DNA from: a virus
Lineage: Duplodnaviria; Heunggongvirae; Uroviricota; Caudoviricetes
Reading direction: 5' to 3' (one strand)
IMG/VR virus record: IMGVR_UViG_2703718806_000009
Length of the DNA stretch: 8,057 nt
How positions within the stretch are numbered: position 1 is the first letter of the stretch; the number at the start of each line of letters is the position of its first letter. The notes beneath the pieces are model-generated. The model ran no database searches. It saw nothing but the letters and a program-made list of their open reading frames with translations, and was not told where the DNA came from. Below are positions 1 through 3,044 of the stretch, piece by piece. The translations under genes and the position numbers were made by a program.

Positions 1-668
1 ATCGCGCCGGTACCATAACGGTGAATGGCTGTTTCGCTGTGATGATAATCGCCGTGTGGCCACTGGCAGGATTTCACGTGACGTAATAACCAGTCAGACA
101 GTGCACCTGCACCACCTGCTGCACGAATAACCTGCTCATCGCTGAAAAATGGCAGTAATGTTTTATCCTCTGCCAGCGGCTGGCGAACGGCAGGAACGAC
201 TCCGGACGGCAGACCGCGCATGTTTTTCGGTTCCGGCTCCACCAATATTCTGCCGTTATGGAATACTGACATTGATTCACGGCCTGGCTTAACGATAACC
301 AGACCGAGTTCCGGTACCAGAACAGGTCGAAGTAATACCCGCACGTTACCTCCAGATGCGCTGCTGGAATGTGCGGGACGGACGCGGTGGGCGTTCGGAA
401 TAAGGGAGCCTGGCGGAGATTATCCAGTGACGACGATCGAAGCTGAGGGCTTTCTCAAACTCATATCCGCGCCTGCGGTAACACTGGATCAGCCATTCGG
501 CCTGTTCTTCAGTGCATGGGGGATGCTGGAACCAGTCGGTTTTAAATACGTGCGAACACCGCCCTTGCCTACTGGCAAGGGCGGCAGAATTGTGCAATCT
601 GCTATCGTGCGCCATCGGGATCTCCGGTGGCACGGTGTTTCTCAGCGACGGTTCAAGTCAGCCTGATT

Positions 669-1119: not shown

Positions 1120-1492
1120 ATGCGAATTTTCAAAAACGCCTGGTTTGAACGTTTCGCCCGAAAACATCGGATTTCCGATAAATCGCTGCGCAAAATCGTG
1201 GAGCAGGCCGATAAGGGGGATCATATCCGCAAATTTGGGTAGTGGTGTCATTAAACAAAGATTAGCCCGAAGTGGTGGCGGAAAATCAGGCGGTTACCGG
1301 ACAATAATTTTTTACCGCGTTGCAGAAAAAGCCTTTTTCATCTACGCATACGCAAAGAATGAACGAGAGAATATCACTGCTATAGAGGAAAATGCTTTTC
1401 GAAAAGCCGCTCCCCATGTCCTCAATCTTACTGATGAACAGCTGGCACAATTGATTCAACAAGGCCAGTTCACGGAGGTACCCAATGAGTAA
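1120..1492 (+). pseudogene. RelE/ParE-superfamily (HigB-like) mRNA-interferase toxin, interrupted by a +1 frameshift in a G5 homopolymer (1215-1219)
   Basis: Frame 1 from ATG 1120 gives MRIFKNAWFERFARKHRISDKSLRKIVEQADKGDHIRKFG then TAG at 1240-1242. Frame 2 continues ...GIISANLGSGVIKQRLARSGGGKSGGYRTIIFYRVAEKAFFIYAYAKNERENI... to stop 1490-1492. Removing one G restores a single ~123-aa ORF with the GGGKSGGYR..F.Y..KNE motif I associate with this toxin family. The track ORF start at 1094 is an artefact of the shifted frame. Confidence 0.6.
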
Positions 1493-1802
1493 AAATTACC
1501 GCAGTGATGCACTTGCATCTGTACATGAAATGATGGAGTCACTCCATGATATCGGTGCAATCACAAAACAAACTATGCGCGAATTCGATGAAACTTGTCT
1601 TCAGCCTGCGCCGGTAATGTCTCCAGAAAGGATCCGTGCACTGCGAGAACGCGAGCATCTGTCTCAACCTGTTTTTGCCAGATACCTCAACGTCAGTAAA
1701 AACCTGATATCAGACTGGGAACGAGGAGTGAAACGCCCGGGAGGTGCAGCTCTTCGGCTTCTTTCAGTTGTCGAGAAAAACGGGATCCAGGTAATATCCT
1801 GA
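1485..1802 (+). CDS. HTH DNA-binding antitoxin (XRE/YiaG-like) partner of the upstream toxin
   Basis: 105-aa ORF whose ATG overlaps the toxin stop (ATGAGTAA), with GGAGG 7-8 nt upstream. C-terminal half has an HTH-like signature (SPERIRALREREHLSQPVFARYLNVSKNLISDWERGVKRPGGAALRLL). Toxin-first order is typical of HigBA-like modules. Confidence 0.75.
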   Translation: MSKNYRSDALASVHEMMESLHDIGAITKQTMREFDETCLQPAPVMSPERIRALREREHLSQPVFARYLNVSKNLISDWERGVKRPGGAALRLLSVVEKNGIQVIS

Positions 1803-1819
1803 TATTCTAATACAACAAA

Positions 1820-1846
1820 ACCCGCCGAAGCAGGTTAAGTGCGGGT
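1820..1846 (-). terminator. probable intrinsic terminator at the 3' end of the hok transcript
   Basis: Stem ACCCGC (1820-1825) / GCGGGT (1841-1846). On the minus strand the hairpin is followed by UUUUGUUG (complement of 1812-1819). Lies ~60-85 nt downstream of the hok stop, between the convergent TA operon and hok. Confidence 0.4.
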
Positions 1847-1875
1847 GCGTTGAGGATGCCTGACACATCAGAGGT

Positions 1876-1897
1876 GGCGAGGGATTTCTCCCTCGCC
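1876..1897 (-). promoter_or_regulatory. perfect 9-bp-stem hairpin (GGCGAGGGA-TTTC-TCCCTCGCC) 8 nt 3' of the hok stop; candidate hok mRNA 3' structural element
   Basis: Perfect inverted repeat read directly from the sequence. hok-family mRNAs carry 3' elements (fbi) that pair with the 5' end to control translation and stability. No U-run follows, so it is not a classical terminator. Confidence 0.4.
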
Positions 1898-1904
1898 AGG
1901 TCTC

Positions 1905-2060
1905 TTACTCCTCAGGTTCGTAAGCTGTGAAGACAGCGACCTCCGTCTGGCCGGTTCGGATTCGTACCTCGCAGAGGTCTTTCCTCGTTACCAGTGCCGT
2001 CATTATGACGGTTAAACAGATGACAATCAGGGCGATTAACATCGCCTTTTGCTGCTTCAT
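1905..2060 (-). CDS. hok: Hok-family type I toxin (HokD/RelF-like small membrane toxin)
   Basis: Translation MKQQKAMLIALIVICLTVIMTALVTRKDLCEVRIRTGQTEVAVFTAYEPEE is near-identical to Hok/RelF as I recall it, with one N-terminal transmembrane helix and the conserved KDLCEVRIRTGQTEVAVF periplasmic part. Confidence 0.85.
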   Translation of the reverse strand: MKQQKAMLIALIVICLTVIMTALVTRKDLCEVRIRTGQTEVAVFTAYEPEE

Positions 2061-2117
2061 AGCCTGCTTCTCCTTGCCTTTCGGCACGTAAGAGGCTAAC
2101 CTACATGTGCAAAGCAT
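1905..2117 (-). CDS. mok: Mok-like reading frame (in-frame N-terminal extension of hok that permits hok translation)
   Basis: The 70-aa track ORF starts MLCTCRLASYVPKGKEKQA upstream of the hok Met, the same arrangement I recall for chromosomal mok/hok pairs (compare MokC MLNTCRVPLTDRKVKEKRAMKQHK...). Confidence 0.55.
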   Translation of the reverse strand: MLCTCRLASYVPKGKEKQAMKQQKAMLIALIVICLTVIMTALVTRKDLCEVRIRTGQTEVAVFTAYEPEE

Positions 2118-2294
2118 GAAATTGGCCTCAGATTAATGTTAAGCGTCCTGCAAGACGCGTAATGTTAACTGGGGCTTTTCTCTGTCTGCCTTACGGCGGC
2201 ATGCCCGAGGCAGACAGCCTCAAGCACCCGCAGCAATTCTACTTAACTCTTCTTTCCCCGCAAATCATTTTATCCCCGATGGTAATGTTCTCCC

Positions 2295-2314
2295 GATATG
2301 GGAATTCCCATATC
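2295..2314. repeat. perfect 20-bp palindrome GATATGGGAATTCCCATATC (EcoRI site at centre)
   Basis: Read directly from the sequence. Sits 17 nt 3' of the ORF6N-like gene stop and upstream of the hok leader. No flanking T-run, so more likely a protein-binding dyad than a terminator. Confidence 0.8.
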
Positions 2315-2331
2315 AAGGTTAACTCAATCGG

Positions 2332-2883: not shown

Positions 2884-3044
2884 GATAACGCCCTCTGGTT
2901 GATGAATTTAACTATCACCACCTTCAGGTCTCAATCATCAGGTGGCGAGACGTACAGGGTTGAGACTACCGGATCAACCAACCGGCCAGCCTTTCGGCTG
3001 CCCCATACGCCTCACCATAATTCAGATGTGCGTGCGCATACGAC

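Follow-up and report, generated by a model that had tools for sequence, protein, structure and literature searches.

Positions 1812-2263 of the window (the whole 8,057-nucleotide stretch of DNA analysed here) very probably carry a complete and apparently functional hok/mok/sok type I cassette of the hokD/hokW subgroup, which forms a self-contained insert within the early region of a lambdoid prophage from Shiga-toxigenic E. coli. The locus is an ordinary hok/sok toxin-antisense-RNA cassette of a type already known, and involves no new mechanism. The preliminary description of this DNA had named a mok/hok type I toxin locus, an identity borne out by the Hok/Gef domain, the mok frame and a Sok placed by homology; the alignment to characterised hok/sok loci that it proposed placed sok, ucb/dcb and tac/fbi, with which the folding agrees, and the search that it proposed for inactivating changes, made in the sequence and against K-12 hokD, found no IS insertion or stop codon interrupting the cassette. 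The elements, with ucb and the others defined according to PMC9841398, are the following.

1812 to 1836, minus strand: intrinsic terminator of the hok mRNA, AACCUGC-UUCG-GCGGGUU followed by UUGUUGU, at the end of the conserved cassette.
1843 to 1854, minus strand: fbi, CUCAACGCACCC, complementary to tac.
1876 to 1897, minus strand: 3'-UTR hairpin, GGCGAGGGA-GAAA-UCCCUCGCC, seen in the folds, with compensatory changes in helix 22.
1905 to 2060, minus strand: hok toxin gene, 51 amino acids, MKQQKAMLIALIVICLTVIMTALVTRKDLCEVRIRTGQTEVAVFTAYEPEE, from PF01848 and the PGAP name hokD.
1905 to 2117, minus strand: mok reading frame of 70 codons, sharing the frame of hok and continuing through that gene.
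2074 to 2102, plus strand: Sok promoter, -35 TTGCCT (2074-2079), 17-nt spacer, -10 TAACCT (2097-2102).
2092 to 2129, minus strand: mok translation-initiation/Sok-target hairpin, with the Shine-Dalgarno (SD) GAGGC at 2129-2125, AUG at 2117-2115 and dcb GCCUC at 2096-2092.
2109 to 2183, plus strand: Sok antitoxin RNA, predicted from its fold and from an alignment without gaps to the 71-nt sokW annotated in phage 933W.
2170 to 2178, minus strand: ucb/anti-SD box, AAAGCCCCA, pairing with the mok SD region (full-length) or with tac (truncated) in the folds and the Rfam structure line.
2182 to 2217, minus strand: 5'-leader hairpin of the hok mRNA, GGCUGUCUGCC...GGCAGACAG, from the folds and an inverted repeat.
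2218 to 2229, minus strand: tac, GGGUGCUUGAGG, at the 5' end of the hok mRNA, pairing with fbi (full-length MFE) or with ucb (3'-truncated MFE).
2236 to 2263, minus strand: putative hok promoter, -10 TAGAAT (2241-2236), weak -35 TTGCGG (2263-2258), 16-nt spacer.

From about 1814 to 2245 the sequence matches, at 100% identity, a chromosomal locus of many Shiga-toxigenic E. coli that carries the annotation hokD; strains RM10466 and FORC_041 are among those with the identical locus. The cassette is carried by 3803 of 5426 genomes, thousands of which keep it at 90-100% identity, and hok cassettes were counted at 10,935 places in complete E. coli genomes. In the comparison with other genomes, homology of the cassette ends at window 1814 and conservation starts at about 2241, the hok -10 being its first conserved block, and in the phage genome it lies between an ORF6N gene and the Q/nin region. 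Variation was followed in 97 related cassettes from viral contigs. A pattern scan of viral contigs (GCCTCTTAC, a gap of 11-12 nt, CAAGGAGAAG) returned 120 loci, and a scan of genome contigs with GCCTCTTAC-N{8,10}-CAAGGAGAAG returned 12, mostly chance matches in unrelated MAGs; the cassette sample is one of viral contigs.

The toxin gene matches PF01848 (Hok/Gef) over profile positions 1-42 of 42 (E=4e-23), is preceded by the SD AAGGAG within 2069-2077, and is predicted to encode a small hydrophobic Hok/Gef peptide of about 50 residues, as is expected in the family. Its PGAP name, hokD, reflects peptide identity only. The sole difference from K-12 HokD is V20M, a comparison made against the commonest cassette peptide, which we take to be the K-12 HokD sequence; this substitution may affect the toxin and is weighed against full function. 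The mok frame opens with the ATG at 2117, with GAGG 8 nt upstream, and by its sequence mok is an upstream frame overlapping hok with an SD of its own, as the family demands. Fusion of mok and hok in one frame occurs in 80 of the 97 cassettes (77 as 70+51 aa), and in other classes the upstream ORF is 19 aa long or overlaps out of frame.

The hok mRNA would begin at G2229, to judge from position 1 of the Rfam model and the alignment with an R1-like locus. In the MFE fold of the full-length mRNA, 2229-2218 pairs with 1854-1843, the long-range tac/fbi pairing of the family, and ucb pairs with the mok SD; in that of the truncated mRNA (2229..1858), tac pairs with ucb and the SD with dcb, as the R1 model requires. 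This rearrangement, characteristic of the family, agrees with the consensus structure of RF01794, which matches the whole leader at 117 bits (gathering score 59). The truncated fold presents a 7-nt loop, CUUUGCA (2114-2108), containing UUUG. At the 5' end, a metastable hairpin of the nascent transcript can form between GAGGC (2220-2216) and GCCUC (2211-2207). The full-length mRNA folds well beyond its shuffles (z=-8.5), 91% of cells are paired across the 97 cassettes, and 35 pairs have changed on both sides, compared with 18.8 in shuffles (0/500) and far above slid controls. Helix 2 of the leader hairpin shows compensatory changes; for instance, 72 sequences have A-U, 15 have G-C and 2 have U-A. 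The SD/dcb hairpin recurs in most of 28 sequence classes, including every common one, with a variable loop and a stability of about -12 to -13 kcal/mol. The tac element is almost invariant, and the tac/fbi helix, 99.2% paired, is invariant in the 97 cassettes; therefore, this set lends it the support of conservation but none from covariation. A 9-bp stem had been noted at 2182-2190/2210-2218 in the search for Sok: the stem is genuine (CTGTCTGCC at 2182-2190 pairs with GGCAGACAG), its second arm lies at 2209-2217, and it is part of the 5' leader of the hok mRNA and not of Sok.

At the 3' end, the structure described at 1876-1897 is a real hairpin (GGCGAGGGA/TCCCTCGCC), which by the R1 model (PMC9841398) would be left as the last stem-loop once the hok mRNA is processed to its truncated form. 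For a second structure at 1820-1846, the pairing ACCCGC/GCGGGT is possible, and the terminator-like hairpin itself is 1836..1819 on the minus strand, followed by TTGTTGTATT, the only terminator-like site that a scan of 1700-2450 found. Both structures belong to the hok mRNA itself: one is its 3' hairpin, the other its fbi/terminator region.

The antisense RNA, expected on the plus strand around 2100-2180, could be placed there at 2109-2179 by gapless homology to SokW. It would start at G2109 with a single-stranded 5' tail (about 2109-2123), continue into a terminator hairpin at 2124-2175 and finish with a U-tract whose end falls at 2179-2183, for a total length of 71-75 nt; its transcription and both ends are predicted by homology. 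The predicted fold reaches -29.2 kcal/mol, compared with a shuffled mean of -14.4 (z=-5.7). The direct repeat TAATGTTAA that had been pointed out has exactly two copies in the whole window, one at 2134 and one at 2160, and the hairpin GCGTC-CTGCAA-GACGC at 2143-2158 is present as described; repeat and inner hairpin, as arms and tip, are the Sok terminator stem and also the Sok-target/ucb stem of the hok mRNA. The -35, 17-nt spacer and -10 of the Sok promoter are identical to those of sokW, and in the 97 cassettes the -10 TAACCT is kept in 75, the -35 TTGCCT in 72 and the 17-nt spacer in 96; a missing conserved Sok promoter, which had been offered as a sign of a degenerate or silent locus, is thus not what the alignment gives. 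The 'pro-less' primers YO-421/422 of Takada et al. (2021) replace exactly the Sok -10 (hok strand TAGGTTA to CCGGCTC), upon which HokW toxicity appeared (PMC8621323). A generic consensus promoter scan called no sigma-70-like site in 1700-2450, the Sok and hok promoters both being sub-threshold; this miss is not counted against Sok, because the hexamers of the experimentally validated sokW promoter are equally sub-threshold. At the sequence level, the locus has a cis-encoded Sok that covers the mok SD and AUG and possesses a promoter and terminator of its own.

The placement of Sok also bears on how the Rfam hit is to be read. Since RF01794 is named 'sok antitoxin' and scores 117 bits on the minus strand, its 175-nt segment 2229..2055 could be taken literally as the antitoxin. 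However, the match terminates within the hok SD and AUG, the structure line describes the tac-stem/target hairpin of the hok mRNA, and in K-12 and 933W the model likewise hits the hok strand, with the annotated sokC and sokW opposite and inside the hit. The match marks the hok strand, and a minus-strand antitoxin was rejected as having almost no chance of being correct.

Among known systems, hokW-mokW-sokW of Stx2 phage 933W (Sakai prophage Sp5) is 91% identical in DNA over window 1833-2271 and has the same architecture, both loci being prophage-borne; the Sok hairpin is near-identical, with the extra GCGTC/GACGC tip in both. [quoted passage not shown] With hok/sok (parB) of plasmid R1, the alignable parts are tac, the metastable hairpin, ucb, the mok SD and AUG, the target loop, dcb overlapping the Sok promoter, the hok SD, the 3' hairpin and fbi, and RF01794 matches both loci; by contrast, the Hok peptide has diverged, the window Sok hairpin has an insertion of about 18 nt, and the window locus is in a prophage on a chromosome rather than on a plasmid. 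An R1 Sok sequence that served as a guide only matched the R1-like plasmid locus inexactly. HokW itself is 44% identical to R1 Hok (PMC8621323).

K-12 hokC (gef)/mokC/sokC shows the same element order (RF01794 at 118 bits), with sokC annotated antisense at the equivalent place; K-12 sokC is 59 nt long and lacks the 18-nt hairpin insertion of the window Sok, and an IS186 lies downstream of the K-12 locus. K-12 hokD (relF, cryptic prophage Qin) is 97.7% identical in DNA over window 1817-2074, comprising the hok SD, ORF, 3' hairpin, fbi and terminator, but lacks everything upstream of 2074 (Sok -10, Sok, mok start, ucb, tac and hok promoter), where relE stands instead. The window departs from this relB-relE-hokD arrangement, which is devoid of leader, mok start and sok, in having the full leader and Sok; of the two loci, K-12 hokD is the truncated form and that of the window the complete one.

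Based on these findings, we propose a mechanism that follows the R1 model, its elements drawn from sequence and folding and its in-vivo steps conditional. The weak promoter (-10 TAGAAT) would yield a hok mRNA of about 417 nt, from 2229 to about 1813, in which tac at the 5' end is paired with fbi at the 3' end and ucb holds the mok SD, so that neither translation nor Sok binding would occur. Slow 3' trimming to the 1897-1876 hairpin would remove fbi, after which tac would pair with ucb and the mok SD would enter the SD/dcb hairpin, displaying the loop CUUUGCA directly after the mok AUG. Sok, transcribed from TTGCCT-17-TAACCT on the plus strand from 2109 to about 2180, would pair through its free 5' tail with the target loop and the mok start region, and the duplex would block translation of mok, on which that of hok would depend, and be cleaved by RNase III. 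If Sok synthesis stopped, upon prophage loss or induction or transcription shut-off, the unstable Sok would decay, and the stable processed mRNA would be translated into Hok, which would depolarise the inner membrane. For R1 (PMC9841398), and in part for hokW-sokW (PMC8621323), it has been shown that Sok is unstable, that RNase III cleaves the duplex, that the hok mRNA is processed at its 3' end and that cells are killed when Sok is lost. The role of the cassette may be maintenance, help in lysis or phage exclusion.

Whether such a locus still works has to be asked, as K-12 hokD is a relic retaining only window 1817-2074, and intact hok loci of chromosomes that had been assayed before reportedly failed to bring about post-segregational killing (bioRxiv 10.1101/2025.08.07.668861). 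The window locus might likewise be a silent or decaying relic, recognisable but with hok and/or Sok no longer expressed or toxic; both promoters match the consensus weakly, and the neighbouring RelE-type toxin gene is frameshifted, and therefore decay does occur in this prophage. However, all cassette elements are intact and canonically spaced, the Sok promoter equals the functional one of sokW, the cassette is kept at 90-100% identity in thousands of genomes with compensatory changes in its stems, and the HokD peptide is toxic on expression (bioRxiv 10.1101/2025.08.07.668861), which together make a relic highly improbable. The same neighbour bears on a functional coupling of the two systems, by a shared bidirectional terminator or by read-through from the toxin-antitoxin operon that would act as antisense on fbi at the 3' end of hok. 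The convergent type II operon reported earlier holds as to its HTH antitoxin ORF, intact at 1485-1802, and fails as to its RelE-type toxin, which is split between two frames (PF06296 positions 1-35 and 39-120, at 1120-1242 and 1235-1492) and annotated as two CDS by PGAP; the arrangement of an intact toxin ORF followed by an antitoxin ORF is absent, and the frameshift is tentatively placed at the G5 run 1214-1218, by an alignment to FORC_043 too diverged and oddly annotated for more.

For coupling speak the mere 102 nt by which the stop codons of the antitoxin gene (1802) and of hok (1905) are separated and a scan of 1700-2450 that found no plus-strand terminator-like site, and therefore read-through across fbi is conceivable. 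Yet the hairpin with its T-run is present on the minus strand only, on which ground 1820-1846 was rejected as a shared terminator; the claimed common termination zone is not supported by the homology, which ends at 1814, nor by an adjacency of hok and the operon in only 202 of 5426 genomes, versus the 3803 with the cassette. In addition, the flank of the window cassette recurs in 0 of 96 other viral-contig cassettes, in FORC_043 another toxin-antitoxin pair (Doc family) lies between cassette and operon, and the RelE toxin is frameshifted in the window. Coupling is therefore very unlikely, and the self-contained, apparently functional hok/mok/sok cassette is the reading we retain.

In conclusion, the main significance of this work is in annotation. 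RefSeq records of the allele list only 'hokD', with mok and Sok absent, and the Rfam 'sok' family marks the wrong strand; therefore, automated pipelines will misplace or miss the antitoxin. With the coordinates given here, the many Shiga-toxigenic E. coli that have this cassette can be annotated for Sok, for the Sok promoter and for the switch elements of the mRNA. A further point concerns Sok nucleotides 2-6 (window 2110-2114), which follow the invariant +1 G and pair with the loop of the target hairpin. They take 16 forms in the 97 cassettes, which are otherwise 85-95% identical, and their per-column entropy (1.2-1.8 bits) is as high as that of unrelated flanking DNA, compared with 0.1-0.3 bits in hok, with a near-constant stability of the enclosing stem; the window class, GCAAAG, is rare (3/97). 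In the literature available, a search for descriptions of cross-talk between Sok RNAs, or of classes of Sok specificity, brought up nothing specific. A genome holds up to 10 cassette copies, and the class differs in three and is identical in one of only four same-genome pairs, a sample too small to weigh. It is possible, though we hold it doubtful, that these nucleotides are a specificity code by which a genome could house several prophage hok/sok cassettes with no Sok silencing the hok of another copy. If so, each prophage would keep its own addiction or lysis timer. The variable Sok segment is a modest lead, open to testing, on the way in which numerous paralogous type I systems might avoid cross-talk.

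The locus is a known system that the preliminary description had correctly recognised as a mok/hok type I toxin locus. The Hok peptide matches the entire Pfam Hok/Gef model (PF01848, E=4e-23). The region (528 nt) has chromosomal counterparts of 100% identity in many Shiga-toxigenic E. coli, with serotypes including O104:H21, O113:H21, O22:H8 and O43, where the sole annotation beneath the match is 'hokD: type I toxin-antitoxin system toxin HokD'. The best-annotated relative in the phage collection is hokW/mokW/sokW of phage 933W and VT2-Sakai (91% identity).

Features placed in and around the locus (element names tac, fbi, ucb and dcb after Le Rhun et al. 2022, PMC9841398)
1485-1802, plus: HTH antitoxin gene, intact
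1836-1819, minus: terminator-like site AACCTGC-TTCG-GCGGGTT plus T-run, the sole such site in 1700-2450
1843-1836: region of fbi plus terminator
1854-1843, minus: fbi CUCAACGCACCC, pairs with tac in the full-length MFE fold
1876-1897, minus: 3′ hairpin, real, expected protector of processed hok mRNA
1905-2060, minus: hok toxin ORF, 51 aa, MKQQKAMLIALIVICLTVIMTALVTRKDLCEVRIRTGQTEVAVFTAYEPEE (translation)
2074-2079, plus: Sok -35 TTGCCT (sequence)
2096-2092, minus: dcb GCCUC, pairs with the mok SD in the truncated MFE fold
2097-2102, plus: Sok -10 TAACCT (sequence), 17-nt spacer from -35
2109, plus: predicted Sok +1 G, seven bases past -10
2117, minus: start ATG of the mok frame, 70 codons, in frame with hok (translation)
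2129-2125, minus: mok SD GAGGC, pairs with dcb in the truncated MFE fold
2134 and 2160: direct repeat TAATGTTAA, the only two copies in the window
2143-2158: hairpin GCGTC-CTGCAA-GACGC
2178-2170, minus: ucb, pairs with the mok SD region (full-length) or tac (3′-truncated)
2182-2190 / 2209-2217: 9-bp stem CTGTCTGCC / GGCAGACAG, hok mRNA 5′-leader hairpin in the folds
2220-2216 with 2211-2207: metastable nascent-transcript hairpin, GAGGC with GCCUC, a possible pairing from sequence
2229-2218, minus: tac GGGUGCUUGAGG, pairs with fbi in the full-length MFE fold
2229..1812: full-length hok mRNA MFE fold, tac/fbi and ucb/mok SD region
2229..1858: 3′-truncated hok mRNA MFE fold, tac/ucb and mok SD/dcb
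2295-2314: perfect 20-bp palindrome GATATGGGAA/TTCCCATATC, between the ORF6N stop codon and the hok promoter
2332-2883, minus: ORF6N-domain gene
2938-3022, minus: C4 antisense RNA, Rfam match, 69 bits
3048-3122, minus: isrK, Rfam match, 51 bits

In a hok-sense alignment of the window, 933W, K-12 hokC, an R1-like plasmid locus and K-12 hokD, homology is colinear over the entire length of the mRNA. In the 933W record, a misc_RNA of 71 nt named 'SokW antisense RNA' faces the mokW start, and because the interval from mok SD to hok SD is of equal length in the window and 933W, annotated SokW (GTTCAGCATGG...GGGGCTTTT) maps without gaps onto window 2109-2179 (GCAAAGCATGAAATTGG...GGGGCTTTT), which places the cis-antisense Sok on the plus strand, where it had been expected. 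The proposed alignment to characterised hok/sok loci also located the Sok promoter, TTGCCT-17-TAACCT, in a stretch identical in 933W. Among 97 related cassettes from viral contigs, window copy included, the commonest -10 is TAACCT (75), followed by TAATCT (14), the commonest -35 is TTGCCT (72), followed by TTGACC (24), a 17-nt spacer separates the two hexamers in 96, and the Sok +1 G is invariant. The hokW-sokW pair is a working type I system, to which RNase III and Hfq contribute and in which a 'promoter-less' sokW mutant unleashes HokW toxicity that is rescued by Sok supplied in trans (Takada et al., PMC8621323). The TAGGTTA on the hok strand replaced by mutagenic primers YO-421/422 (PMC8621323) is TAACCT(A) on the Sok strand, the hexamer assigned here as the -10. 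A generic consensus promoter scan made no call at the Sok promoter and likewise missed the validated sokW promoter. Homology to a relative studied experimentally, together with folding, allows the predicted Sok, its promoter and every switch element of the mRNA to be positioned with good confidence, and we infer transcription, processing and killing by the window allele.

Sok is predicted to comprise about 15 unpaired 5′ nucleotides, a single long hairpin and a U-tract, with a fold of -29.2 kcal/mol versus -14.4 ± 2.6 in shuffles (z=-5.7). The repeat and inner hairpin of the preliminary description are both present: the two TAATGTTAA copies, self-complementary when G-U pairs are permitted, are the two arms of the Sok stem middle, and GCGTC/GACGC is the stem tip, an insertion of ~18 nt relative to the Rfam model, hokC and R1 that is carried by 87/97 cassettes. 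The hairpin 2125-2178 folds at -26.7 kcal/mol as Sok but only at -18.1 kcal/mol as hok mRNA, where it is far less stable because the two G-U pairs of Sok turn into A-C mismatches.

The full-length and 3′-truncated forms of hok mRNA are predicted to fold differently: the full-length fold has z=-8.5, and the truncated one exposes a 7-nt loop, CUUUGCA, immediately past the mok AUG. On the 97-cassette alignment, pairing in the full-length structure reaches 91.1% and drops to 33-42% with partners slid, and 35 pairs show double changes versus 18.8 ± 2.7 in shuffles, none of 500 reaching 35. The 9-bp leader stem, outside Sok, stood as described except that its second arm had been set one base off, and it has undergone compensatory changes, with 72 sequences having A-U, 15 G-C and 2 U-A. 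The tac/fbi helix is 99.2% paired yet invariant and is therefore backed by conservation only. The truncated fold is also the consensus structure of the Rfam 'sok antitoxin' family RF01794, which matches the window with 117 bits at 2229..2055 on the minus strand, ending in the hok SD and AUG. Since annotated sokC (553-611(+)) and sokW (1777-1847(+)) lie inside the RF01794 matches, but on the other strand, in K-12 (502-654(-), L003) and 933W (1723-1897(-), L001), RF01794 is a model of the hok mRNA leader, and true Sok is a partial reverse complement of it. Rfam-driven annotation would put the antitoxin on the wrong strand.

K-12 hokD (L005) matches only window 1817-2074, at 97.7% identity; it retains the hok SD, ORF, 3′ hairpin, fbi and terminator, but lacks the Sok -10, Sok, mok start, ucb, tac and hok promoter. 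Its homology ends at 2074, where the Sok -35 hexamer begins, and relE sequence lies upstream, abutting the breakpoint. The window locus is the complete form, and K-12 hokD is a 5′-truncated derivative of such a locus. Pedersen and Gerdes (1999) reportedly described hokD as inactivated by rearrangement. The same is stated in general terms elsewhere (PMC12214031).

Of 5426 complete E. coli genomes, 3803 have a related cassette that covers at least 80% of the query, some in as many as 10 copies, and per-column conservation among the 97 cassettes is high from ~2241 to ~1815 and at background level on either side. The hok cassette (1814-2245) appears as a discrete insert-like unit of ~430 bp with sharp homology edges and many different flanks. 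Its surroundings here are a lambdoid prophage early region with CI and Cro-like repressors, YdaT and replication genes, the ORF6N-domain gene directly upstream of hok, and DUF968, RusA and Q farther on. The C4 and isrK matches stand in tandem upstream of the ORF6N-domain gene and are transcribed toward the hok cassette, with no terminator-like site detected between them and the hok promoter; the pair is similar to the control modules c4-ant of P1/P7 and isrK-antirepressor of Salmonella Gifsy. Of the retrieved loci, 18 share the 18-bp core of the palindrome at 2295-2314; as no T-run follows it on either strand, it may bind a protein instead of acting as a terminator.

The 3′ hairpin at 1876-1897 was confirmed, but a termination zone common to both toxin systems was not borne out. 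Homology in E. coli genomes typically begins at window 1814, the downstream flank is common to none of the other 96 viral-contig cassettes, and the toxin-antitoxin-hok arrangement is found in only 202 genomes; therefore, both 3′ structures belong to the hok cassette, the terminator-like site being on the minus strand only, and the adjacency is a lineage-specific juxtaposition. In strain FORC_043 (L138), hok and the HTH antitoxin gene are separated by a Doc-family toxin pair, and the prophage spot thus accumulates toxin-antitoxin modules. The type II transcript might conceivably run on into the 3′ region of hok, since no plus-strand terminator was detected in 1700-2450. The RelE/ParE-type toxin (PF06296) is split in two frames, 1120-1242 and 1235-1492 (+), called as two CDS by PGAP, probably, though tentatively, by a +1 shift at the G5 run 1214-1218; with its HTH antitoxin intact, the type II pair is therefore an antitoxin with a broken toxin.

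The hok Tyr47 codon (1919-1922, minus) lies in a TACG context nearly invariant among cassettes, and TACG is the motif that TadA edits. A-to-I editing of this codon, giving Cys, was reported at 6% in K-12 hokD mRNA (PMC12214031) and could be an additional layer of toxicity control.

The most variable columns inside the conserved cassette are 2114-2110, which on the hok strand make up the first five positions of the loop and in Sok are nucleotides 2-6; there, entropy is 1.2-1.8 bits, the same as in unrelated flanks, versus 0.1-0.3 bits in the hok ORF. Sok positions 1-6 take sixteen distinct hexamers, all with the same +1 G; the CAU facing the mok AUG is likewise constant. The null explanation is relaxed constraint. 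Mok is fused in frame to hok in 80/97 cassettes (77 as 70+51 aa), whereas 9 have a 19-aa upstream ORF whose UGA stop appears to overlap the hok AUG and 7 have an out-of-frame overlap (varying relations in the classes of L019, L023 and L108, alignment A2); as the classes differ in how the mok frame sits against hok, the sequence of the Mok peptide evidently does not matter, and only translation through the mok region seems to be conserved. Relaxed constraint would not easily give variability above that of synonymous sites. In the large majority of the 28 classes, the SD/dcb hairpin retains a stability of ~-12 to -13 kcal/mol and its inner stems co-vary; it is much weaker (~-5 kcal/mol) in three single-sequence outliers. 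A YUNR loop motif occurs in most, not all, classes. Cassettes sharing a genome differ in class in three of four pairs, too small a sample to bear on Sok specificity. The 5′ tail of R1 Sok is said, by Franch et al. in 1999, to initiate pairing at the target loop, and the variability pattern therefore fits a diversification of recognition specificity among these antitoxins.
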